64,000 nt of DNA from Myxococcota bacterium (GCA_018821305.1 JAHJMN010000131.1:44106-108105), one strand, 5' to 3'. Shown: positions 4,406 to 61,990, counted from the stretch's first letter. Made by a program: numbers and translations. The notes: generated by a model from the letters alone, not told the origin.

Positions 4406-4741
4406 TTATTTTATTCCTGAAGTCTTGAACATGGAAAGAAGAATGTCTTTGTAATACTTAAGAGAGGCTTTTCCTGATTCAGTGATGGTAACCTCAGTTA
4501 GAGGTTTCCGGTTTACAAATTTTTTCTCAACGGAAATAAATTGAGCTTCTTCTAACTTCTTGAGGTGAAAACTGAGGTTTCCCTGTGTTAGACCACTCAT
4601 TTTCAAAAGCTTCATAAAATCAATAGAGTTAGCTTTGAAAAGGTAGCACATTATTGAAAATCTGGCAGGTTCATTTACAACCCTATCCATCTTCTCAATG
4701 TTTTCAAATGGAAACGTAATTTCTTTCTCAGAATTTTTCAT
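4406..4741 (-). CDS. winged-helix transcriptional regulator (MarR/ArsR-like wHTH)
   Basis: The 111-aa product has an HTH-wing pattern 'MKLLKMSGLTQGNLSFHLKKLEEAQFISVEK'. Confidence 0.6.
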   Translation of the reverse strand: MKNSEKEITFPFENIEKMDRVVNEPARFSIMCYLFKANSIDFMKLLKMSGLTQGNLSFHLKKLEEAQFISVEKKFVNRKPLTEVTITESGKASLKYYKDILLSMFKTSGIK

Positions 4742-30918: not shown

Positions 30919-33900
30919 TTGATGTATGAACTCGGAATGAATCACCAGTATGACTATATCCTGTTTCTTGCGGGCTTTTTCTTTATCATAAGTTCATTTT
31001 TTCTGCGATCCATGGTTTCTAACAGATTCAAAGAGAGACTATGGACAGTTTTTTCCTATGCCCTGTTTTTTCACGGTATTTTTCTTCTTCTGAAAATGGT
31101 TCAGGTATCAAACCAGGTTAACTGGTTAAAATATCCCGGCTTTTTTTCATCTCTTATCGGCTGGTTTTTTATTCTTGAATTCAACATTAGGTACATCAGG
31201 GGGTCGCCGGGACAAGGGTTTATCAGGTATGCTTCTATTGCGGGAATTCTACCCGTTGCGGGGTTTTTACACAGTTATGAAATGGCATTTACCATCATGT
31301 CGCTTATGGGAAGCATTTTACTGTGTATCAGTTGTTTTTTTGTAATTACAAAACCCCGACTTAAAATATTAAAAACCCGTGACTACATTTATGTCTTTTT
31401 CGCATGTTTATCTGTTTTGCTGGCCGTAATCAGTAGTCTTCCAGAAGCTTCATTTTTTCCAAATCGGATAATCAATGAATACAGGGTGTGGCGATTTTTA
31501 AAATTCCCTCCTGCGGTTTTTGAAGCTTTTACCGGTTCGGTGTGCATTTATTTTGGGATACTTCTGAGAAATCATCTTAAAAGAAAACGTTTTAAAAACG
31601 TTGATATTTCAAAATCTTTTCGATGGGATTCCCTCGTTGTTTTTATGTTGCTCGTCACAATGGGACTTGGCTTTTATGCCACAAAATCCGTAAATGAGAA
31701 AACAGATAAAACCCTCAGGGAGGATTTCATTAAAAGAGCAAGTACAGCAGCAGCGGCCATGAATCCTGAGCGAGTTAAAAAACTCCGAGGGCTTTTATCA
31801 GATGAAAATGACATAAATTTTTTGCGTCTTAAAAGCCAACTTGCCAGCGTAAGGAAAGTAAACAGTGATTCACGCTTTGTGTATATATGCGGAAAACGCG
31901 GTAAAAACATTGTTTTCCTTCTTGATTCAGAAACTGCGACTTCAAAAGATTATTCTCCACCGGGACAGGTTTATTCCGAAGCGAGTGTTCAACTCAGGAG
32001 GACTTTTAAGACGGGAAAAGCTGTTGTTGAAGGGCCTGTGAAAGATCGCTGGGGAACCTGGGTAAGCAGTTTTATTCCCATTAAAGATGCCGATGGCAGT
32101 GTTTTAGCTGTGCTTGGAATGGATGTTAATGCAGATCGCTGGTCCGCTTATCTTTCCCGCAGTAGATTTGTTGTAATACTTGTTATAATGCTTCTTAATA
32201 CTTTGATTCTGTTTCTATATTTTGCTTATCAGAAAAAACTGGAATCAAGTTGGGAAGAAATTGAAAAAGCAAGACTCTCAGAAAGATACAACGCTATACT
32301 TTTAAGTCTCAGTTCACGCTATTTTTCCAATTTAAAAAAAGGTGTGCATTCCTGGCTTGAGAAAACAGGGGAGGTTCTGGGGTCAAATATCATTGGTCTA
32401 TGGCGGCTTAAGTCCGGAAGATTGGTTTGCAAATATAAAATTGAAAATGAAGTGTTTCAAAAGGAAGTAACTTCAAGACAGTTGAGCCTTGAGGATACAA
32501 AAAATTTGAATAGAGCTTTTAAAAAGGAATTTATTTACATAGAAACCATTGATTCTCAGGACGGATACAATATTCTGAAGTCCCCTTGTTTTTCACGATT
32601 TCAAAACAGCACCCTTATACTTTGTGCTCTGGCTGAAGATGGTCAAGCGAATACAATGATTTCGATTATATTGCCGGGAACAGCAAAAGTTTCCAAAGAA
32701 TTGAGGTCATTTCTTCACGGGGTAATGAATTCACTAAATCTGTTTTTAGAAAAGTATACTCGTCTGGAGACTCAGGCGAAACTTCGCAAAGGCGATAAAC
32801 TCCTTAATATGATACTCGAATCCATGCCAAATCCGGTATTTTATAAGGATGTTGCGGGAAAATACGTGAAATGTAACCGGGAGTTTGCGGAATATGTAGG
32901 AAGATCTAAAAACTGGATAATCGGAAAAACTGTATTTGATGTAATAACCCCGGAATTTGCGGAAAAATACACGGATTCAGATAGATTGCTTATAGATAAA
33001 GGTGGAACACAGATTTATGAATCCCGTTTTCTTCGTAATCAGAAGGAAATGAGAGATGTTATATTTTATAAACGTGCTCTAACCGATGACCAGAGCCGGA
33101 TTCAAGGAATTATCGGAGTAATTATTGATATTACTGACCGCAAGAAGATGGAGATTGCTTTAGCTGAAAGTGAGCAGAAGTATCGTACTTTAGTGGAAAA
33201 CAGTTCCGATATTATTTACTCGCTGGAACTTGATGGAACTCTTTCTTATATCTCAAACGGTGTCCTTCGTTATGGTTATACGGTTGAAGAAATAATCGGC
33301 AAGAATATTGCCCTGTTTCTTCATAAAGATGATGTTGAAAAAACACTGAATTCATTTGCTGCGGGCGTAATTTCCAATGATCTTAAAGTCATTACTTTCA
33401 GAATAATCAGCAAGTCCGGATCCATACATTACATGGAGGAATACGGCTCGTTTATGTGTGATGACAATGGAAATATCCGCCAGATTATAGGTATTCTCAG
33501 GGATATAACCGAACGAATTGAAACAGAAAATAGTATACTTGCAGAAAAAGAGAAAACCGAAGCAATGAATCGGGAGTTACAGAAATCTATTATGATTTCC
33601 AATGAACTGGCTCTCCGGGCTCAGGAAGCGAATATTGCTAAAAGTGCTTTTCTCGCAAATATGAGTCATGAAATAAGAACGCCAATGAACGGAATTATAG
33701 GAATGACTCAATTGCTGATAAATACAAACCTTACTCCTCAGCAGAAAGAATATGCATCTATTGTTATTAAGAGCTCGGAATCACTCTTGAGCATAATCAA
33801 TGATATACTTGATTTTTCTAAAATCGAAGCGGGTAAAATTAGTCTGGAAAATGTTTATTTCAATGTTGAAAATACCCTGGAAGAACTTATGGAAATCCTG

Positions 33901-35106
33901 TCACTGAAGGCATGGGAAAAAGGTCTTGAAGTTGTTTACAGTGTTGATAATGCGCTCAAATGGAAGGTTTCCGGTGATGAAGGTCGTTTTCGTCAGGTAC
34001 TTACAAATCTCGTAGGAAATGCCGTTAAATTCACGGAAAAAGGATGGATTTCTCTTGATGTTAAAGTCATTTCGGAAACCCCATCTTCGGTTGAACTTGA
34101 GTTTACTGTTTCAGATACCGGGATTGGTATTCCACCGCAAGAAATTGACCGATTGTTTAAACCTTTCACACAGATAGATGCCTCAACAACTCGAAAATAT
34201 GGTGGAACAGGACTTGGATTGAGTATTACATCTCATCTCCTGAAACTGATGGATGGGTCAATCAATGTGGAATCCACGGAGGGTCAAGGAAGTCGTTTTA
34301 TTTTCAAACTATCATTTTTAAAAGGCGAACAAATAGAGGATGGGACAGGATTTGCAGGAAGGATTCTGGTTATTGAAAAATCAGGACTGTCTGGAAAAAT
34401 GCTTGAAAAGTTGCTTTTATCCATGGGTTTTGAAGTACAGGTTGTTTCAAAAATTGAAGATGCAAAGGATCTTGAACCTTCAGCGTTCAGGAAAATATTT
34501 ATTGATGTAAATATGCTGGAAGACTCAGTTGTTAATAAACTCATTTCTACTTCCAAACCCTCGGGAGTCTATATTCTATCCCGTCCAGGTGAGAAAATTC
34601 CTCATAATTTTGCTTTAAGAACTCTTTCCCGCCCTGTTAAACGCAGCGAAATTGTGAAAGTATTCATGGAATCCGTAAGACTCAGATTATCCAGTCTCAA
34701 ACAAATGACACCGCCCCGAGTAATCAGTTCTGCGAAAATTCTTGTAGTGGAAGACAATATTATAAATCAGAAGGTAGCTGTTAAATTTCTTGAAAAACTC
34801 GGTTGCAGTGTAGATGTGGCATTTACCGGAAACGAAGCAATCAGAGCACTGGAACTCAAACCTTATGATATTGTTTTTATGGATGTTCAGATGCCGGAAC
34901 TTGATGGTCTTGAGGCAACGAGAATAATTCGGAGCCGTGAAAGAAATAATGGCGATGCCCACATAATTATTATTGCCATGACGGCCCATGCCATGAAGGG
35001 CGACAGGGAAAAATGTCTGGAAGCAGGCATGGATGACTATATTTCAAAGCCTGTAAAACCCGATGTGATGGAAGAAATTATTACAAAGTATTTCATTGGA
35101 AGTTGA
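30919..35106 (+). CDS. large hybrid sensor histidine kinase (multi-TM sensor, PAS domains, HisKA-HATPase, two receiver domains)
   Basis: About eight N-terminal TM helices and a periplasmic-like sensor. PAS motifs 'PNPVFYKDVAGKYVKCNREFAEYVG' and 'SSDIIYSLELDGTLSYIS'. HisKA 'ANMSHEIRTPMNGIIGMTQLL', HATPase 'GTGLGLSI'. The C-terminal receiver is 'ILVVEDNIINQ...IVFMDVQMPELDG'. Confidence 0.85.
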   Translation: MMYELGMNHQYDYILFLAGFFFIISSFFLRSMVSNRFKERLWTVFSYALFFHGIFLLLKMVQVSNQVNWLKYPGFFSSLIGWFFILEFNIRYIRGSPGQGFIRYASIAGILPVAGFLHSYEMAFTIMSLMGSILLCISCFFVITKPRLKILKTRDYIYVFFACLSVLLAVISSLPEASFFPNRIINEYRVWRFLKFPPAVFEAFTGSVCIYFGILLRNHLKRKRFKNVDISKSFRWDSLVVFMLLVTMGLGFYATKSVNEKTDKTLREDFIKRASTAAAAMNPERVKKLRGLLSDENDINFLRLKSQLASVRKVNSDSRFVYICGKRGKNIVFLLDSETATSKDYSPPGQVYSEASVQLRRTFKTGKAVVEGPVKDRWGTWVSSFIPIKDADGSVLAVLGMDVNADRWSAYLSRSRFVVILVIMLLNTLILFLYFAYQKKLESSWEEIEKARLSERYNAILLSLSSRYFSNLKKGVHSWLEKTGEVLGSNIIGLWRLKSGRLVCKYKIENEVFQKEVTSRQLSLEDTKNLNRAFKKEFIYIETIDSQDGYNILKSPCFSRFQNSTLILCALAEDGQANTMISIILPGTAKVSKELRSFLHGVMNSLNLFLEKYTRLETQAKLRKGDKLLNMILESMPNPVFYKDVAGKYVKCNREFAEYVGRSKNWIIGKTVFDVITPEFAEKYTDSDRLLIDKGGTQIYESRFLRNQKEMRDVIFYKRALTDDQSRIQGIIGVIIDITDRKKMEIALAESEQKYRTLVENSSDIIYSLELDGTLSYISNGVLRYGYTVEEIIGKNIALFLHKDDVEKTLNSFAAGVISNDLKVITFRIISKSGSIHYMEEYGSFMCDDNGNIRQIIGILRDITERIETENSILAEKEKTEAMNRELQKSIMISNELALRAQEANIAKSAFLANMSHEIRTPMNGIIGMTQLLINTNLTPQQKEYASIVIKSSESLLSIINDILDFSKIEAGKISLENVYFNVENTLEELMEILSLKAWEKGLEVVYSVDNALKWKVSGDEGRFRQVLTNLVGNAVKFTEKGWISLDVKVISETPSSVELEFTVSDTGIGIPPQEIDRLFKPFTQIDASTTRKYGGTGLGLSITSHLLKLMDGSINVESTEGQGSRFIFKLSFLKGEQIEDGTGFAGRILVIEKSGLSGKMLEKLLLSMGFEVQVVSKIEDAKDLEPSAFRKIFIDVNMLEDSVVNKLISTSKPSGVYILSRPGEKIPHNFALRTLSRPVKRSEIVKVFMESVRLRLSSLKQMTPPRVISSAKILVVEDNIINQKVAVKFLEKLGCSVDVAFTGNEAIRALELKPYDIVFMDVQMPELDGLEATRIIRSRERNNGDAHIIIIAMTAHAMKGDREKCLEAGMDDYISKPVKPDVMEEIITKYFIGS

Positions 35107-35270
35107 ACATAAGGATTTTATTACAGAGGAGCCTGTTAGAGATTTTAATAAATTTCTTCGCGAAGCGAATTACAGGACACGAACTATTTACAAGATACAA
35201 CCTCAGGTTAAAGCCCCTGATTGTACTGTTACTGTTACTGCTACTGATTACCTGTGCCCTGATTGTTTTT

Positions 35271-35455
35271 AACAGGGAATCAGGAAAACAGGGAATCAGG
35301 AAAACAGGGAATCAGGAAAACAGGGAATCAGGAAAACAGGAAAACAGGAAAACAGGGAATCAGGAAAACAGAATCAGGAAATCAGGGAATCAGGGAATCA
35401 GGGAATCAGGGAATCAGGGAATCAGGGAATCAGGGAATCAGGAAAACAGAATCAG
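35271..35455. repeat. compound microsatellite: (CAGGGAATCAGGAAAA)~5 then (ATCAGGGA)~8
   Basis: Direct reading shows 16-bp and then 8-bp perfect tandem units between the convergent 3' ends of the hybrid-kinase and Sel1 genes. The repeat generates spurious ORFs 35103..35477 and 35263..35586. Confidence 0.9.
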
Positions 35456-35534
35456 GAGCAGCGGGAGTTTACTTTGAAGGGAAGTGTTTTTGTGGCATCA
35501 AAACGAGTGACTATCTTATTACTAAGGACAGTAA

Positions 35535-36983
35535 CTATTTACAAGCGGGATTTGTGGGATCAATAAGGCATCCTTTTTTAATGTAATTTTTCGCCGCGGT
35601 TTCATTTTTATAAAAATATGGGCCGCTTATCCGGTGGGCTTTTGCAGCGGCAAAACAGCTCGGGGCATGACCAAGGGTACAGAAAGACTTGATTTTCATA
35701 GCAAAAGTAGAATCAATTGTGAAAAGCTTTTTCTCAATACCAACATCCAGGAGAGCGGCACAGGCATCCGCATGATTGTTTTTGCATGACGCCATTGCAA
35801 GAGAAACGCCGGTTTTTTCGTCTCCGTCGGTGGCGGTTTTTGTAATATACATAATTCCAAGAGCTCCACAAGCCTGCCCATTTGTGGGGTACTTCTGGTT
35901 CTGGTAACTATAATGACGGTAACGATAATATCGGTATCTATTGTAATTGTTAGATTTATAGCATTTTGAATAGAGCAACTTAGCTGCGGACGCAGGATCT
36001 GCTTTCATCCCGATACCGGTGGCCATTGCCTGAGCATAGTGAACACAGCCATTCTCACTGCCCATGAAGCAACTGCGCCGGAAAATATCAGTTCCTTTAT
36101 CTTTATCTCCAGTTTGAGTAAATGAAATACCCAGTTCAATGCATGCATCATCCTCTCCCTTGATGCAGTTATCTTTGAGTATCCGATGGGCCTCGTCGCG
36201 ATTTTTAGTTCCAAACCACGCCCCCGTAAGAGCTTTTGCCTGGAATATACATGCTCGTCGGTAACCGGTTTGACATAGAGTTTTAAGGGAATCATAGTAG
36301 GAGATGGAGGATTTGAAACTCGTCAATCCCGATAATATCAGTCGAAAACTGTTAAGACATCCCGTATGATGACCATAGCGACAGGAAAGCAAATAATACT
36401 CTATGCTTTCAGACATTTGTCTTCTTCGTTCTCGCAGCGTAGCCGCCATTTCACAACTGAGAGCACTTTTTGCACGACAACCGGCGGTATATATTCCCTC
36501 AAGGGTCGCAGTGTCAAGTCGGAGAAATCCAATCCGGTGGATATTATTTCTCAACTCATCACACCACTGCCGATTTCCCTTACGACAAAGGTCATAACTG
36601 TAGTTGAAAAAATCACGAAATTGGTCCTGAGAAAGTCCACGTGAGAGTTCGGTAGTATACAGGAGTTCGCATCCCCATGAGATTTTCTTTGAACATATGT
36701 TTTCAGTGATATTTATAAGATGAGTTCGTTTTTCATAATCGGTATTAAGGGGGATAATATCAGTAAGAATAGATTTCAGGCTATCACAGGCTTGTTGATT
36801 ACCTTTAAGGCATTCGGAACTGTAAATATCAAGGCTACGGGAATTGTTTTCTTTTTCATATTTTTGAGCACATGCGATGGAAGCGGAATTGGCGCAATCC
36901 ACTGTTTTAGGCTGTGTGCCATCAGAGTTCTTAGAGCATGAAATAAAAATAAAAAGCAGCCCGACTGAAAGAAATCTATACAT
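35535..36983 (-). CDS. Sel1-like repeat (Helicobacter cysteine-rich protein-like) lipoprotein
   Basis: Lipobox (FIFISC). Many repeats with paired Cys about 36 aa apart, such as 'QACGALGIMYITK...DACAAL', are typical of Sel1/Hcp beta-lactamase-like repeats. Confidence 0.75.
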   Translation of the reverse strand: MYRFLSVGLLFIFISCSKNSDGTQPKTVDCANSASIACAQKYEKENNSRSLDIYSSECLKGNQQACDSLKSILTDIIPLNTDYEKRTHLINITENICSKKISWGCELLYTTELSRGLSQDQFRDFFNYSYDLCRKGNRQWCDELRNNIHRIGFLRLDTATLEGIYTAGCRAKSALSCEMAATLRERRRQMSESIEYYLLSCRYGHHTGCLNSFRLILSGLTSFKSSISYYDSLKTLCQTGYRRACIFQAKALTGAWFGTKNRDEAHRILKDNCIKGEDDACIELGISFTQTGDKDKGTDIFRRSCFMGSENGCVHYAQAMATGIGMKADPASAAKLLYSKCYKSNNYNRYRYYRYRHYSYQNQKYPTNGQACGALGIMYITKTATDGDEKTGVSLAMASCKNNHADACAALLDVGIEKKLFTIDSTFAMKIKSFCTLGHAPSCFAAAKAHRISGPYFYKNETAAKNYIKKGCLIDPTNPACK

Positions 36984-37147
36984 TTAAAACCCCTTCCGAG
37001 GATATGATCCTGAATTTATTATCTACTGCTCTCGTTGTAAAGTACAAAACCTGACTTTATAAATTTGTATTGATTAAAGTGAACCTGTCGCTGATTATTA
37101 TTTTGTATCATCAATTTATTATCCTTGGATTTGAGTAAATGTTTCTG

Positions 37148-37300
37148 ATCCTGATTTTTTTAGCAGGGATTCAGGAAGTCAGGAAAACAGGGAACAGGAG
37201 TCAGGGCGTAAACATTCAATATCAATAAATAATTACAAAAAGACACTGCTTTTAACTCACTTTCCAGATTTCGATCCTTATTATTCAAAAGCGGTTCTGG
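37148..37300. repeat. dispersed CAGG-rich element copy, in the divergent promoter region between the Sel1 gene and pfk
   Basis: 'CCTGATTTTTTTAGCAGGGATTCAGGAAGTCAGGAAAACAGGGAACAGGAGTCAGGGCGTAAACATTCAATATCAATAAATAATTACAAAAAG...TTTCCAGATTTCGATCC'. Confidence 0.75.
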
Positions 37301-42239: not shown

Positions 42240-45200
42240 ATGAAAAAACAATTCGGATTCCAGATATTTGTGTCCCTGTTTTTATCTCTGCTTCTTTCCA
42301 GTGGGTGTGACGACAGCGGTGAAAAAAACGATGAATGTGCTTCCGGATGCCTGATTGAAGGTATTTGCTATCCTGACGGAGTTATAAACCCTTCTAATTC
42401 CTGCCAAATCTGCAATCCTGGTCTATCAGCGGATAACTGGTCTGATCATGAAGGTAGTTGCGACGATGGTTTGTTCTGTACGGTAAACGACATGTGCACT
42501 GCCGGAGTTTGTGAGGGCACCGAACGAATTTGTGATGACGGCATAGCCTGTAACGGCAGTGAAACCTGCGATGAAGAAAATCAGATCTGCACCGTTGGAA
42601 CACCTGAGTGTGACTCCGGGACTTTGTGTAATCTGGAGACAGATACCTGTGTTCAGACCTGCACCGGGTGTGCAATTTCCGGAATCTGCTACGGAAACGG
42701 TCAGATTAACCCCGCCAATCAGTGTCAGATCTGCGATCTGGTTACAAATGCTTCTGACTGGACCAGCCGCGACGGCGAAAGCTGCGACGACGGCCAGTTC
42801 TGCACGGTAAACGATGCATGCAGTGCCGGAGTTTGTGAGGGATCTGCCCGCAGTTGTGATGACGGTATAGCCTGTAACGGCAGTGAAACCTGTAATGAAG
42901 ATACGGACAGTTGCTCTAGTGGAACAGTCACCTGCACCGGCGGTGCCATGTGTGATATTGCTACGGATAGTTGTCTTTTTGCCTGTAATGGCTGCATTAT
43001 AAATGAAATTTGCTACGGTCACGGAAGCATTAACCTTTTAAATACATGCCAGATTTGTGATATGTCTCAGAATTCAGTTGGGTGGACAGATCGCGATGGG
43101 GCAAGCTGTGATGACGGTCTCTTCTGCACGATAAACGACACGTGCTCAAGTGGTGTATGTCAGGGATCTGCCCGTCCATGCGACGATGGTATTTCCTGTA
43201 ACGGAAGCGAAAGTTGCGATGAAACCAGCGATTCGTGCATTGCCGGAGTAACTACCTGCGAAAGTTCCGAGCTTTGTGAATTGACAACGGACAACTGCGT
43301 TCAGATGTGCACCGGGTGTGCAATTTCTGGAATCTGCTACGGAAGCGGTCAGACAAATCCCGCAAATCAGTGTCAGATTTGCGATCCCATTACAAATGAT
43401 TCCACCTGGACCAGCCGCGACGGCGAAAGCTGCGACGATGGCCTTTTCTGCACGGTAAATGATATGTGCGCCTCAGATATATGTGAAGGTACGCCCAGGG
43501 TATGCGATGACGGCATAGCCTGTAACGGCAGTGAAAGTTGTGATGAAGGCTCAGACACCTGCACGACAGGGGTAACAACCTGCGAAAGTTGGGAACTTTG
43601 CGATATGACTGCCGACAGTTGCGTTCAGACGTGCACCGGCTGTGCAATTTCCGGTATGTGCTTTGGAAGCGGCCAGATAAATCCGGCAAATCCCTGTCAG
43701 ATCTGCGATACTGTAGCGGACTCTTTTGCCTGGACCGATCGCATTGGAGAATCCTGTGATGATGGCGTAAACTGCACTGAATCGGATATGTGTGAAGGTG
43801 GCGGCATCTGCATGGGCACTGCTCTGGCTTGCCTGACGGATCGTCCCTGTATGGAAAACACCGGTTGCACTGAAGGATCCGGGTGCGGTGAGGTAATGAA
43901 TCCTGCCTGTGCCATGGATATCCATTGTGCCGATATCTGCACTGAAATCGGTGATACAGCCAAGTATTTTATTTATGAAATTTCTCCCGCAGAATTATCC
44001 ACTTCTGGTGGGGAGCTTGTAACGCTAAAAGGTTTCTTCGGTGATGGTTCAGAAGTGACCATTATCGCTGGGGGCATTTCCGTTCCTGTCCTGAGCGCCA
44101 ATTCAACTACGGTTACCTTCAGTGCTCCTGAGGCAAGCACAGATCTTGATCTCGTAATTACAGGCCCTGGTGGGGCACCGGTTGTGCGAGTTTTCAATGA
44201 ATATAATTACGGAGTTCCATATTATGTAACGTCTTCTTCCATGTCCCTTGTGTATCTTGCACCGGTGGTAACCACTGTTGAGGGGTGTAGTAATATTGGT
44301 TCAGAAGGAGTTACAGTAGATTGTGAAAAAGACGGGGGCATACCCATTCTGGTCACCGGTATGAATTTCGGAAATGATCCATCGAACCTTACAGTTCTTA
44401 TTGGGGATACCGAGTGTCAAGAGTTGGCGTTGGCAGATTATCATACTCGGATTTATTGTAACATTCCTCCTATGCCTGAAGGCGACTGGATTTTCAACGT
44501 AACGGTTATAAGGGATGGCAAGTCCGGAGTTAAGGAAGGTGGTCTGTCCTACGCAGGACCGTATATCGCTGAAGTTTTCTATAATGATGATGTTGACCCC
44601 GCTGGAGGAAGTATGCTGGAACTGCGAGCAGGCAACATAAGTTTACCTCCGGACACATCGGTATGGATCGGGCCAACAGGCACTGAAAATGAGTGTTTAA
44701 TTCTGGGGATCTTTTCCGATACAATACGATGCATAGTTCCTGCCGGGGCTGGAGTTGGTCATGAAATTAGAGTAAAAACTGGCAACCTCTGGTCCGAACC
44801 GGCACCGGTATTTTTAAATTACCGACTGCCGACAATTCAACCGGGCAGCCTGACTCCTGATCCCCTTATTCCCGGCGGTCTGATTCTTCCTTTACCGACA
44901 TATCCTGCTCAGGTTTACTTCCGGGTGGATGATCTTCCGACACTTTATGATACAGTAAATATTACTTATTATGATGGAATTAACTCCAATATCTGTCATT
45001 TCCCCGAGCTCACAGCAAACTCCTTATCCGAACCCATGGTTGGGTGCTGGATATTTGGCAATCTTTCTTCCGATGGTGCTGTCATGGGAGATTCTTATTT
45101 TTCAATCTCCGTTTGGGGTGCAACTGTTAATGGTACAGACATGCTCCAGTTTGGCATTCCGCCCCAGATGGCGACGTTTTCCGGTTGCGTTGATGACGGA

Positions 45201-45719
45201 AGCGGCAATACCGGGTCATGCCCCACGGAAGGTGGCAATACAATTACCGTAACGGGAAGCGACTTTTCCTCATCCATGCAGCTTGCGGTAAACGGAATTA
45301 CGACGGCTTACAATCTGATTTCTTCCAATGAAATCACCTTCACCATGCCCCAAGGCACTGGATATGCCAGTGTTCAAATCATCCTTCCATCGGGGCTGCT
45401 CTCCGCCGCCGCCGCGATTTCATACACCAGACCCGTAATTGATTCTGTACAAGGATGCCCTTTTACAGTTGGAAATACAACACACGGTTGTCCTGTGACT
45501 GGTGGAACAGTAATTACCATAAACGGAAGTGATTTCGGCTCATCCGGAGCAGAAGTGTTAATCGACAAAAATCAATGTACAGGTGTTTTGCATGACGCCC
45601 TGACGCCCCATCGCCGCATTACCTGCATACTGCCTCCGGGCACAGGACTGGAAGTTCCCGTAACCGTAAAAGCCGGAACCTTCACCAGCGATCCCGCCCG
45701 CCTCTCATACTTGCCGTAA
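42240..45719 (+). CDS. giant surface lipoprotein/adhesin with five tandem Cys-rich modules of about 107 aa and C-terminal IPT/TIG domains
   Basis: Lipobox (LLSSGC). Modules 'C.GC.I.GICYG.G.INP.N.CQICD...W..RDG.SCDDG.FCT.ND.C..G.C.G..R.CDDGI.CNGSE.C' recur about every 320 bp from roughly 42340 to 43900. IPT-like blocks 'IYEISPAELSTSGGELVTLKGFFG' and 'ITVTGSDFSSS' follow. Confidence 0.7.
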   Translation: MKKQFGFQIFVSLFLSLLLSSGCDDSGEKNDECASGCLIEGICYPDGVINPSNSCQICNPGLSADNWSDHEGSCDDGLFCTVNDMCTAGVCEGTERICDDGIACNGSETCDEENQICTVGTPECDSGTLCNLETDTCVQTCTGCAISGICYGNGQINPANQCQICDLVTNASDWTSRDGESCDDGQFCTVNDACSAGVCEGSARSCDDGIACNGSETCNEDTDSCSSGTVTCTGGAMCDIATDSCLFACNGCIINEICYGHGSINLLNTCQICDMSQNSVGWTDRDGASCDDGLFCTINDTCSSGVCQGSARPCDDGISCNGSESCDETSDSCIAGVTTCESSELCELTTDNCVQMCTGCAISGICYGSGQTNPANQCQICDPITNDSTWTSRDGESCDDGLFCTVNDMCASDICEGTPRVCDDGIACNGSESCDEGSDTCTTGVTTCESWELCDMTADSCVQTCTGCAISGMCFGSGQINPANPCQICDTVADSFAWTDRIGESCDDGVNCTESDMCEGGGICMGTALACLTDRPCMENTGCTEGSGCGEVMNPACAMDIHCADICTEIGDTAKYFIYEISPAELSTSGGELVTLKGFFGDGSEVTIIAGGISVPVLSANSTTVTFSAPEASTDLDLVITGPGGAPVVRVFNEYNYGVPYYVTSSSMSLVYLAPVVTTVEGCSNIGSEGVTVDCEKDGGIPILVTGMNFGNDPSNLTVLIGDTECQELALADYHTRIYCNIPPMPEGDWIFNVTVIRDGKSGVKEGGLSYAGPYIAEVFYNDDVDPAGGSMLELRAGNISLPPDTSVWIGPTGTENECLILGIFSDTIRCIVPAGAGVGHEIRVKTGNLWSEPAPVFLNYRLPTIQPGSLTPDPLIPGGLILPLPTYPAQVYFRVDDLPTLYDTVNITYYDGINSNICHFPELTANSLSEPMVGCWIFGNLSSDGAVMGDSYFSISVWGATVNGTDMLQFGIPPQMATFSGCVDDGSGNTGSCPTEGGNTITVTGSDFSSSMQLAVNGITTAYNLISSNEITFTMPQGTGYASVQIILPSGLLSAAAAISYTRPVIDSVQGCPFTVGNTTHGCPVTGGTVITINGSDFGSSGAEVLIDKNQCTGVLHDALTPHRRITCILPPGTGLEVPVTVKAGTFTSDPARLSYLP

Positions 45720-45766
45720 GGCACGGTGGAAGCAGGAAAGCAAGCTTGGGTAATTCCATCAACCTG

Positions 45767-45943
45767 AATGACCACACCCCTGAATCCGAATTCGATGTTG
45801 AATGAACGGATCATAAAAGCGTTCGTAGACCGCCTATAGTTAGCCCAGGGTTTTAACCCTGGGATCGGTGCCGGGGTAATCACATAGAAGTAAATGACCA
45901 CACCCGTGAATCCTCATGCGATGTTGAACCCGCAGACCATGAG
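45767..45943. repeat. two ~49-bp direct repeats (AATGACCACACCC.TGAATCC...CGATGTTGAA...) flanking a 77-bp segment containing hairpin CCCAGGGTTTTAACCCTGGG
   Basis: DR1 is at 45767-45815 and DR2 at 45893-45943. A third partial copy 'TCGATGTTGAATCCGCAGACC' lies at 46091-46113. The perfect 8-bp-stem hairpin is at 45844-45863. Confidence 0.8.
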
Positions 45944-45960
45944 CCTGTGCCCAAAGATTG

Positions 45961-46115
45961 CCTGTTCCTGATTACCTGATATTTAACAGGGACTCAGGTA
46001 GTCAGGCAAACAGGATCAGGAACAGGGCGTAAATATTCAATATCAATGGAATATTACAAAGACTGGAAGCAAATATTCACTTTTTAGTTTTCGATGTTGA
46101 ATCCGCAGACCAGCC
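45961..46115. repeat. dispersed CAGG-rich element copy
   Basis: 'CCTGTTCCTGATTACCTGATATTTAACAGGGACTCAGGTAGTCAGGCAAACAGGATCAGGAACAGGGCGTAAATATTCAATATCAATGGAATATTACAAA...GAAGCAAATATTCACTTTTTAGTTTTCGATG' aligns base-for-base with the 46625 copy. Confidence 0.8.
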
Positions 46116-46148: not shown

Positions 46149-46480
46149 GTCGGAACCAAAGGTGGAATGAAAAATCAACCGGGTCCGCGCGACATGGCGT
46201 GAGGTGGAATGAAAAATCAACCGGGCCCACGCGACATGGCGTGAGGTGGAATGAAAAATCAACCGGGTCCGCGCAACGCTGCTCGAGGCAAGACGAAAAA
46301 CAACCACTTCCACGCAACGCAGCGCGAAGCCGGACGAAAAATTACCAGGTCCGTGCAAGATGGCGCGAGGCCGGACGAAAAACAACCGCATCCACGCAAG
46401 ATGGCGCGAGGCCGGAAAAAAAATTACCCGGTCCGCGCAATACGGCGTGAGGTGAGATGAAAAATGAGCCGGTTCCGCGC
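46149..46480. repeat. GC-rich 41-42-bp tandem repeat array, about 8 units, consensus GGTGGAATGAAAAATCAACCGGGTCCGCGCGACATGGCGTGA
   Basis: Units 1-3 are near identical and later units diverge, conserving only the 'GAAAAA(T/C)' core and terminal 'GCG(T/C)GAG'. Head-to-tail without spacers. GC is far above the local background. Confidence 0.85.
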
Positions 46481-46542
46481 TATTATTAATATTTCTTTTT
46501 ATCAGATAAAATTTGAAAATAGGATGAACGATCCTTATACTC

Positions 46543-46564
46543 TGCAAGCGGTCTAGACCGCTTC
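46543..46564. repeat. near-perfect palindrome GCAAGCGGTCTAGACCGCTTCC (shared terminal module of the dispersed element)
   Basis: Preceded by 'CGATCCTTATACTCT', as in the copies at 46770 and 61775. It could form an 8-9-bp-stem hairpin and may act as a terminator. Confidence 0.7.
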
Positions 46565-46624
46565 CTGAGTAATACGATTGTGAGTTATTCTAAAGAAAAT
46601 CTTCAGGAGAAAGACCCTGAATGT

Positions 46625-46802
46625 CCTGTTTCTGCTACTGATTTCCTGTGTTCCTGAAATTTTAAACAGGGACTCAGGAAGTCAGGCAAACAGGGACAGG
46701 CGCAGGTCATAAACATGTAATATCAATTTAAAATTACAAAAACTTGAAGCAAATATTCACTTTTTAGATTTCGATCCTTTTACTCCGCAAGCGGTCTAGA
46801 GG
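46625..46802. repeat. dispersed CAGG-rich intergenic element, most complete copy (ends in GCAAGCGGTCTAGA palindrome half)
   Basis: 'CTGCTACTGATTTCCTGTGTTCCTGAAATTTTAAACAGGGACTCAGGAAGTCAGGCAAACAGGGA...ATATCAAT...AATTACAAA...GAAGCAAATATTCACTTTTTAGATTTCGATCCTTTTACTCCGCAAGCGGTCTAGA'. Confidence 0.8.
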
Positions 46803-47518
46803 GAGGGGGAATCCGGGGAATCGGGTTTTCTTTTTCGACTTATGCGGGATCGCTGATTTGCTAAAGCTGTGAAAAAGTCGGCAAAAACTGCTGCTGCTCT
46901 TTCTTCTCCCTTCAAAACAAGTACCGTCGACCACACGGCTTTTATTGCGTTATCCAAATCGGGAATTGTTGCTTTCATCGTAACTGGCTTTGCATCCATT
47001 GCGGCATTACGTTTTTCGAGATTTTCTAAGAAAACATCATTGGAGTTGCGGATAGCATCCACAAAAGGGCCAAAGTTTAAATTTGATATGCGGGGGGCAA
47101 CTTCCGGAGTTGAAAGAAATGCGAGACGTTCATTTAAAATACCAGTTTCACTTATGTAAGATTCCTTGAGGAATCCAAACCCATTGGGATTTATGCGTTC
47201 GAGGATAAAAATGGCATCTTCTCCTTTGTCGCTTCCCGGAAGCATAGCAAAGGATTCAAGATAGCTGCATGCAGCACGAAATGCGTCATCGCGAAGCTCT
47301 TCAAGTTGGGTAAGTTCTTCCGTAAGGGATTTTTCATGTCTTGGAACGAGGGTTGAAATGGTATTGTTTGCCCGTAGTAAAAGTTCGTCTGCTAAAGCTT
47401 TAATTGAAGGATCTTCGGGCCAGGTACTGAGACAGTTTTTTGCGGCATTTAAAGAAACTTGTGCTTTTTCAACGGAATTGAGTATAGAAACTGCTAATTT
47501 AAACATAGTTAAATCCAT
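46796..47518 (-). CDS. hypothetical protein, downstream of phoU
   Basis: 240-aa helical ORF whose stop codon lies inside a dispersed-repeat copy. Confidence 0.45.
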   Translation of the reverse strand: MDLTMFKLAVSILNSVEKAQVSLNAAKNCLSTWPEDPSIKALADELLLRANNTISTLVPRHEKSLTEELTQLEELRDDAFRAACSYLESFAMLPGSDKGEDAIFILERINPNGFGFLKESYISETGILNERLAFLSTPEVAPRISNLNFGPFVDAIRNSNDVFLENLEKRNAAMDAKPVTMKATIPDLDNAIKAVWSTVLVLKGEERAAAVFADFFTALANQRSRISRKRKPDSPDSPSL

Positions 47519-61740: not shown

Positions 61741-61990
61741 AAAACATTTAGTCTTTTCAAATTTCGATTACTCCGAAAGCGGTCTATACCGCTTGCAGAA
61801 TAAAATGATCGAAATAAGAAAATTGAATCAAAAATTACGTTCTTTTTAATTATTAATTGATATTGAATGGTTACGACCTGTTCCTGAACCTGTTTTCCTG
61901 ACTTCCTGATTCCCTGCTAAAAAATCAGGAAATCAGTAGCAGGAACAGGAAAACAGGGGGCCTGCTGCTGCCCCTGATTTCCTGAATGCC
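61741..61990. repeat. dispersed element copy: palindromic 3' module plus CAGG module in inverted orientation
   Basis: 61765-61800 'TTTCGATTACTCCGAAAGCGGTCTATACCGCTTGCAG'. 61868-61912 'CCTGTTCCTGAACCTGTTTTCCTGACTTCCTGATTCCCTGCTAAAAAATCAGG' is the reverse complement of the 37148 copy. Confidence 0.75.

Follow-up and report, generated by a model that had tools for sequence, protein, structure and literature searches.

The tandem array between positions 46160 and 46480 of the window, by which the whole analysed stretch of 64 kb of DNA from a Myxococcota metagenome-assembled genome is meant, is best regarded, with moderate confidence, as a lineage-specific bacterial minisatellite (VNTR) that lies in a permissive spacer between convergent genes, where slippage or unequal exchange would have generated and remodelled it, and that probably has no sequence-specific function. 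The array is composed of eight units arranged head to tail, starting at positions 46160 (u1), 46202 (u2), 46244 (u3), 46286 (u4), 46327 (u5), 46368 (u6), 46409 (u7) and 46450 (u8), of which u1–u3 are 42 bp long, u4–u7 measure 41 bp and u8 is a stub of 31 bp. A repeat search returned eight copies with start-to-start spacings of 42, 42, 42, 41, 41, 41 and 41 bp, and Tandem Repeats Finder, applied to the window, delimited positions 46160–46480 as a repeat with a period of 41, 7.7 copies and 76% matches (score 235), together with a sub-array at 46160–46274 with a period of 42, 2.7 copies and 94% matches. A degenerate pattern of the unit matched six times in the window and not at all in 100 shuffles. 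The sequence-only reading had placed a 42-bp array at 46149–46480; the array itself is real, but the length of 42 bp applies to u1–u3 alone and the register starts at 46160. Its description as GC-rich and free of spacers was borne out, the GC content being 57% in the array and 40.7% in the window, and the units adjoining each other directly both by reading and by the repeat search. All eight units carry a tract of five to eight adenines (at 46170, 46212, 46254, 46296, 46337, 46378, 46416 and 46460); these A-tracts are spaced by 41–42 bp, i.e. approximately four helical turns, and are in phase across all units. An imperfect inverted repeat is also present in each unit.

Alignment of the units separates them into two types. 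The block at 46160–46285 contains the three A-type units of 42 bp, u1–u3 (AGGTGGAATGAAAAATCAACCGGGTCCGCGCGACATGGCGTG), and is followed at 46286–46449 by four B-type units of 41 bp, which form two 82-bp dimers (u4u5 and u6u7); the repeat search found the corresponding higher-order period of 82 bp over u4–u7. The 31-bp stub u8 (46450–46480) is of the A-type, with 26 of its 31 positions equal to those of u1, as counted by eye on the unit alignment. Units u1 and u2 share 95% identity and were rightly described at the outset as near identical, a statement that had also covered the third unit; u3, however, is 86% identical to u1, and its last 11 nucleotides, i.e. its 3′ third, resemble u4. The pairs u4/u6, u5/u6 and u5/u7 are 80% identical each, A-type and B-type units share 62–74% identity, and the identities over all units range from 55 to 95%. 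A UPGMA tree of u1–u7 has the topology ((u3,(u1,u2)),((u4,u6),(u5,u7))). It is clear that the units succeed each other in a block pattern, A-A-A-B-B-B-B-A, with no decay from one end. The conservation gradient that had been proposed is not monotonic, since u8 is again of the A-type, and was abandoned. The relationships between the units show an array built by local triplication and by duplication of a dimer, and point to separate one-unit and two-unit events at different places.

The array was compared between assemblies. The 110-kb contig of GCA_018819425.1 is syntenic with the window and 100% identical to its positions 36251–56455 (20.2 kb), except for one insertion of 41 bp, which duplicates the internal unit u6 (46368–46408) exactly and brings the array to nine units. 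In GCA_018820545.1 the array has eight units and no mismatch; two SNPs were counted in 8.5 kb, and one extra unit was found in an adjacent repeat of 126 bp. This 126-bp tandem repeat, located in the window at 45748–45928, has 1.4 copies there and in GCA_018819425.1 and 2.4 copies in GCA_018820545.1 (locus L086, 7509–7815), and is a second repeat of variable copy number in the gap between the flanking genes. The contig of GCA_018820545.1 ends at window position 46657, where copy B of a dispersed element begins, and a Logan contig from run SRR2544012 stops at 46770, inside the same element copy. Between these genomes, which belong to a single uncultured species of Myxococcota and are identical in other respects, the number of units is polymorphic (8, 8 and 9), as counted in assemblies and not in reads, and tandem repeats appear to be essentially the sole difference between the genomes compared. 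The extra unit is a copy of the internal u6, and growth was therefore internal and not polar. Comparison of unit counts in related assemblies, as suggested with the sequence-only reading, has in this way documented the gain of a unit without the polarity that was expected of it; addition or conversion from one end agrees neither with the only gain observed nor with the unit tree, in which one-unit and two-unit duplications are separate.

An origin of the array, or of its unit count, as an assembly artefact was weighed on the same comparison and appears extremely unlikely. The sequences compared all come from metagenomes assembled from short reads, the repeats of this gap interrupt other contigs, u1–u3 are near-identical and the nine-unit form contains two identical units, as such an artefact might have it; nevertheless, the same eight units occur in three assemblies with no mismatch inside the array, and GCA_018819425.1 adds an exact extra u6. 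Furthermore, u3–u8 are diverged enough for unique placement, and the exact duplicate of 82 bp is, by reasoning, shorter than a typical read. The recurrence of the array in three assemblies addresses, at the level of assemblies only, the doubt about its reality that had been voiced from the beginning.

The array is situated in a repeat-rich gap of 1,076 bp, on which two genes converge with their 3′ ends. The left one (42240–45719, plus strand) encodes a 1159-residue cysteine-rich protein with IPT/TIG domains and ends 440 bp before the array; the right one (46796–47518, minus strand) encodes a 240-residue DUF6261 protein, with PhoU-PstBAC behind it on the same strand. The gene content of the window, including smpB, pfk, the genes for 6-phosphogluconate and glucose-6-phosphate dehydrogenases, NifS/NifU, nadA, NAD synthase, histidine kinases and an A2M-like giant protein, is that of ordinary chromosomal housekeeping DNA. 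The window showed no rep, parA, parB or cas genes, and the ORFs neighbouring the array gave no match with PADLOC (seven ORFs) or PHROG. The DUF6261 protein is assigned by a Pfam match with E = 5e-13. A word-indexed search among 5.8 billion proteins retrieved no homologue except the protein itself, the GTDB genome collection gave no match, and comparison with PDB sequences gave nothing meaningful. Its AlphaFold2 model, computed from the single sequence without an alignment, is all-helical and of low confidence (pLDDT 50.7). Among relatives that possess a similar pst-phoU operon, the closest one lacks the DUF6261 gene.

Several other repeats and hairpins are found in the gap and beyond. Each 126-bp unit contains the hairpin CCCAGGGTTTTAACCCTGGG, which gives a weak, sub-threshold match to Rfam Acido-Lenti-1 at 45827–45863 on the minus strand (23.9 bits, gathering threshold 37). 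Directly upstream of the array, at 45955–46112 (plus strand), copy A of a dispersed element is located; its long hairpin is formed by CCTG/CAGG, and it further comprises a conserved box, an AT-rich spacer of fixed length and the motif CGATGTTGAATCCGCAGACCA. Copy B occupies 46618–46800 (plus strand), its hairpin having a predicted minimum free energy of −43.9 kcal/mol (z −7.4), and further copies are present at 37135–37300 (plus strand) and 61975–61755 (minus strand), which makes four copies in 64 kb. The element is ~150–190 nt long and opens with a long hairpin, the arms of which have an 8-nt periodicity of CCTGnTnn and nnAnCAGG (z −3.9 to −7.4); the conserved box GYCRTAAMCATTCAATATCAAT and a fixed AT-rich spacer of 41–42 nt follow, and after them comes ATTTCGATC, which opens a second hairpin of ~55 nt. 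The contigs of two other assemblies break at copies of this element, which is therefore probably present in many copies throughout the genome; it may belong to the MITE/PATE-like elements or represent a family of small-RNA genes.

A hairpin of ~55 nt lies just downstream of the array at 46524–46585 (plus strand; minimum free energy −21.3 kcal/mol, z −4.1). It is centred on GCAAGCGGTMTAGACCGCTT and has a second copy at 61815–61755 on the minus strand (−23.0 kcal/mol, z −5.2) as well as a half copy at 46772–46800, which overlaps the stop codon of the DUF6261 gene (46796–46798) and runs into the gap. Just past the array (46513–46541, plus strand) stands TTGAAA-17-TATACT, which of all sites in the gap comes closest to a sigma-70 promoter (10 of 12 positions) and points into the hairpin at 46524–46585; in a generic promoter scan, sites were no more frequent than in shuffles. 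At 35224–35457, between the convergent genes at 30919–35106 (plus strand) and 35535–36983 (minus strand), there is a hairpin like that of the dispersed element with its right arm expanded to ~12 copies of the 16-nt unit AACAGGGAATCAGGAA (Tandem Repeats Finder score 283). By our own count this repeat holds ~23 GGA motifs, and on paper it is closer to a CsrA-type sponge than the 42-bp array is.

According to the minisatellite reading, a unit of 41/42 bp would have been amplified at this locus, where its remodelling would still be under way. Units would be gained when strands slip and mispair or when adjacent units recombine unequally, and insertions into a repeat-rich spacer between convergent 3′ ends would be harmless. 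The units, each with an A-tract and a GC-palindrome, would then represent an amplified local sequence and probably no selected binding site or RNA module. The features by which a minisatellite is recognized are present, namely direct repeats of ~10–100 bp without spacers, a count differing between close genomes (at the assembly level) and a non-coding site. The lineage-specific minisatellite is also in keeping with the convergent orientation of the flanking genes, with the presence of further tandem and dispersed repeats in the gap and with the housekeeping surroundings. On the other hand, some observations do not favour a minisatellite devoid of function. Bacteria tend to lose useless DNA; the divergence of 30–38% between A-type and B-type units indicates that the array is not very young, and its persistence hints at some benefit. 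A-tracts recurring every 41–42 bp are, moreover, what would be expected of an organised nucleoprotein array, and the size of the gap likewise argues for some function, although none of these points is decisive.

Among described systems, the mycobacterial interspersed repetitive units (MIRU) come closest; they are direct tandem repeats of 40–100 bp in intergenic regions, with a copy number varying between close strains (PMC5056196). The present array resembles them in being an intergenic tandem repeat without spacers, in its polymorphic count and in the spurious small ORFs that run across it. It differs in that MIRU form one family at 41 loci, often between the genes of an operon, whereas the array unit occupies a single locus in 64 kb, between convergent genes; in addition, there is no sequence similarity between the two, and the units of the array are far more diverged (55–95% identity).

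The distribution of the unit was followed from the window outwards. Neither the unit pattern nor an nhmmer profile found the unit elsewhere in the 64-kb window, where the array is a single locus, and dispersed palindromes of the REP/BIME type were rejected on that ground. The unit pattern had four matches in the JGI metagenomes, all of them single; as they did not form part of tandem arrays, they were attributed to chance. It had no match in viral contigs. By blastn, nothing similar was found in 72,556 plasmids or in phages. Around the PhoU genes of the GTDB collection, the best 80 loci were at most 58% identical, belonged to other phyla and contained no similar arrays. The closest relative in a large protein collection, GCA_016937155.1 (PhoU 68% identical), shows no synteny, and topoisomerase VI genes occupy the place at which the array would be expected. 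As far as can be seen from these sequence collections, the array appears to be confined to one species.

The array is non-coding. Five of the eight units have a length that is not a multiple of three, and the period of 41 bp breaks the reading frame; the long ORFs that traverse the array owe their existence solely to the scarcity of stop codons in the unit. No homologue was found for a 156-residue ORF on the minus strand through the array, and a 102-residue ORF on the plus strand, searched with HMMER against 1.84 billion representatives, matched only an array-internal protein of 81 residues from the same species. A 584-residue unrelated repetitive protein (E = 7e-4, 31% identity to the 102-residue ORF) was set aside as a chance match. 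In an exact-sequence look-up of the ORFs in the array, the ORF of the nine-unit allele alone was on record. The 81-residue protein is annotated at NCBI as a ‘hypothetical protein’, KKF97_18040 (MBU1221707.1), and lies fully inside the nine-unit array (locus L090 of GCA_018819425.1, 10001–10246, corresponding to window positions 46251–46460). It is very basic, and its frame changes with the number of units; KKF97_18040 is almost certainly a spurious gene call. A repeat protein was rejected as an explanation, the frame being broken by the 41-bp period and repeat-protein homologues being absent outside. The possibility that similar arrays occur in coding regions of homologues, named from the outset as one that would overturn the interpretation, was followed up; no such repeat-protein homologues were found, and the non-coding array stands.

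The rejection of a CRISPR, already concluded from the sequence alone, is sound. The array has short direct repeats with a small palindrome in common with CRISPRs, but spacers are absent and no cas genes were seen; no Cas domain was detected in ~45 ORFs with Pfam or in the seven neighbouring ORFs with PADLOC, and Rfam gave no match. The array also lacks leader-polar growth, and its units diverge by up to 45%. Readings of the unit as a DnaA box, an IHF site or a Pho box were likewise dismissed, all of them being poor matches by inspection.

The two ‘cores’ that had been singled out in the unit, GAAAAA and GCGYGAG, were examined against the unit tree. Descriptively, a conserved core does exist, 19 of the 42 columns being invariant in u1–u7, GAAAAA among them. 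Fitch parsimony on the tree, however, required 36 changes, and the 19 invariant columns compare with 17.6 expected at random (P = 0.33; seven units, low power). Substitutions are spread evenly over the unit, and both cores are statistically indistinguishable from chance, at the low power that seven units provide.

This result bears on the proposal that the array is a set of DNA-binding sites, similar to iterons or to a centromere such as sopC, with a dimeric protein seated on each palindrome and the A-tracts bending the DNA into a wrapped complex. In the sopC locus of plasmid F, a unit of 43 bp is directly repeated 12 times, and SopB binds the 16-bp inverted repeat contained in every unit (PMC3177203). 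The same architecture is seen here, i.e. repeats of 41–42 bp, or about four helical turns, which follow each other without spacers and contain an inverted repeat and an in-phase A-tract each. The arms of the palindrome are, however, as variable as the rest of the unit, the inverted repeat showing no higher conservation than its surroundings, and no sub-motif is conserved above chance (seven units, low power). The surroundings do not support binding sites either, being chromosomal housekeeping DNA without the partition and replication genes parA, parB and rep. No DNA-binding gene, those for RHH and wHTH proteins included, was found at less than 10 kb from the array; that for the wHTH protein, at 4406–4741, is 41 kb away. 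The lack of anything similar among the plasmids and the confinement of the unit to one place in 64 kb argue in the same direction. The iteron-like array offered in the sequence-only reading has obtained no positive support, and a plasmid centromere was rejected for want of a par/rep context and of similarity to plasmids. Taken as a whole, binding sites of this kind seem a very unlikely explanation.

Folding was analysed with regard to an RNA made from the array. For the seven full units, RNAalifold predicted on the plus strand a hairpin of 5 bp, CCRYGC-N6-GCGYG, with 0 compensatory pairs, and on the minus strand a version with nine pairs and one compensatory pair (seven paralogous units, low power). 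Single units folded on either strand with z-scores of −2.3 to +0.6, mostly near 0, i.e. no better than shuffles, and the predicted single-unit structures differ between unit types. The same method yielded −3.9, −7.4, −4.1 and −5.2 for the flanking hairpins. When a region of 429 nt was folded as a whole, its z-score against shuffles was −2.5 on the plus strand and −0.8 on the minus strand; the predicted excess of structure on the plus strand is a weak hint, which speaks against a minisatellite without function. No Rfam family matched the window at the gathering threshold. At E ≤ 10, nothing was found over the array proper, and sub-threshold matches of the miRNA type fell on the flanking hairpins; a marginal match to Ysr155/RyfD at 46460–46593 (E = 6.7, 14.9 bits, gathering threshold 42) touches the terminal stub only.

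These predictions can be read in favour of a modular non-coding RNA on the plus strand, which would have the array as its body, start at ~46090 downstream of element copy A and end near the hairpins at 46524–46700. Each unit would provide a small GC hairpin and a single-stranded A-rich stretch, GAAAAAYAAC, close to (AAN)n; the RNA would titrate an RNA-binding protein in the manner of CsrB/RsmZ or CrcZ, and the number of units would set its capacity. Such an RNA is unlikely, though it deserves some weight. The array fills a convergent gap that needs no promoters of its own, the 429-nt region folds better than shuffles on the plus strand in particular, the hairpin CCRYGC-N6-GCGYG is possible in all seven full units, an A5–8 tract occurs in each unit, and a highly conserved 22-mer upstream of the array is shared with element copy B. 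Against this stand the missing Rfam match, the missing compensatory pairs and per-unit folds equal to those of shuffles, as well as larger predicted helices that differ between unit types. A consistent sigma-70 or sigma-54 promoter could not be read upstream of the array, the putative −24 GG being TG in element copy B, and the array has no conservation outside the species.

The known sponges CsrB/RsmZ and CrcZ are not exact tandem arrays; their motifs stand in defined loop contexts, and the RNAs are conserved across genera. The CsrA sponge motif is A(N)GGA, present in many copies and typically in hairpin loops. The array is like these RNAs in that a short motif, A-rich and with some GGA, is reiterated between small hairpins over ~330 nt, and unlike them in having neither defined loop contexts for the motif nor cross-genus conservation. 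GGA occurs in six of the eight units, read by eye, in the contexts GUGGA or CCGGA, which differ from the ANGGA of a CsrA site; in the predicted loops the A-tract is found, and not GGA. A bolder form of the idea would make the array the repeated portion of a modular RNA not described before, either a protein sponge tuned by unit number or a precursor cut at A-rich sites into RNAs of ~41 nt that partner with a protein encoded elsewhere, so that the polymorphism of eight and nine units would be functional variation in dosage; this version we consider decidedly unlikely.

The nine-pair consensus fold of the minus strand has a U-tract directly after it, and each unit on this strand could accordingly be viewed as a weak module resembling an intrinsic terminator, in which a GC hairpin is followed within 2–3 nt by UUGAUUUUUC or UUGUUUUUC. 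The array would then be a stack of leaky terminators behind pst-phoU-DUF6261, shielding the convergent TIG gene from antisense read-through. Its location downstream of DUF6261 on the minus strand would suit this role, and a terminator scan flags u4 on that strand. Only one of the eight units, however, passes a simple terminator rule; the single minus-strand units fold like shuffles (within the range given above), the hairpins vary between units, and two much stronger hairpins between DUF6261 and the array would act first. A terminator stack is, on balance, quite improbable, slightly more so than a set of protein-binding sites.

[quoted passage not shown] These antitoxins are tandem repeats without spacers, with units of 31–62 nt in 1.9–5.6 copies (PMC3401426). 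As an orphan or novel antitoxin of this kind, the array RNA would be cut at the A-rich site into RNAs of ~42 nt neutralising an endoribonuclease encoded elsewhere or by the DUF6261 gene. The array shares with ToxI, CptI and TenpI its non-coding tandem repeats without spacers, a unit of 41–42 nt, i.e. of fitting length, and an A-rich stretch in each unit. It does not share the arrangement of a terminator followed by a toxin gene: neither strand has a free-standing ORF beyond the array, such ORFs as occur downstream overlap real genes and were without a match in PADLOC and PHROG, and the hairpin at 46524–46585 is present with no toxin ORF behind it. Toxin matches near the array were absent with Pfam, PADLOC and PHROG, and no ToxN/AbiQ/CptN/TenpN-like protein was seen. 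The DUF6261 gene is convergent with a plus-strand reading of the array, and its product has the low-confidence helical model mentioned above and no match to a defence family. The 7.7–8.7 units exceed the reported 1.9–5.6, and the divergence between them is far stronger than would be expected of antitoxin repeats fitting a single toxin. An antitoxin of type III is an explanation with very little probability.

With the array regarded as a minisatellite, its locus is a strain-resolving VNTR marker for this uncultured Myxococcota lineage, the practical value of which is modest. It also carries a warning to annotators, as a hypothetical protein has been called inside the array, and to assemblers, as contigs break at the neighbouring repeats. 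Should the array prove to function as a modular RNA or as a nucleoprotein complex of arrayed sites, it would represent a lineage-specific regulator, the dosage of which would evolve by the gain and loss of units.
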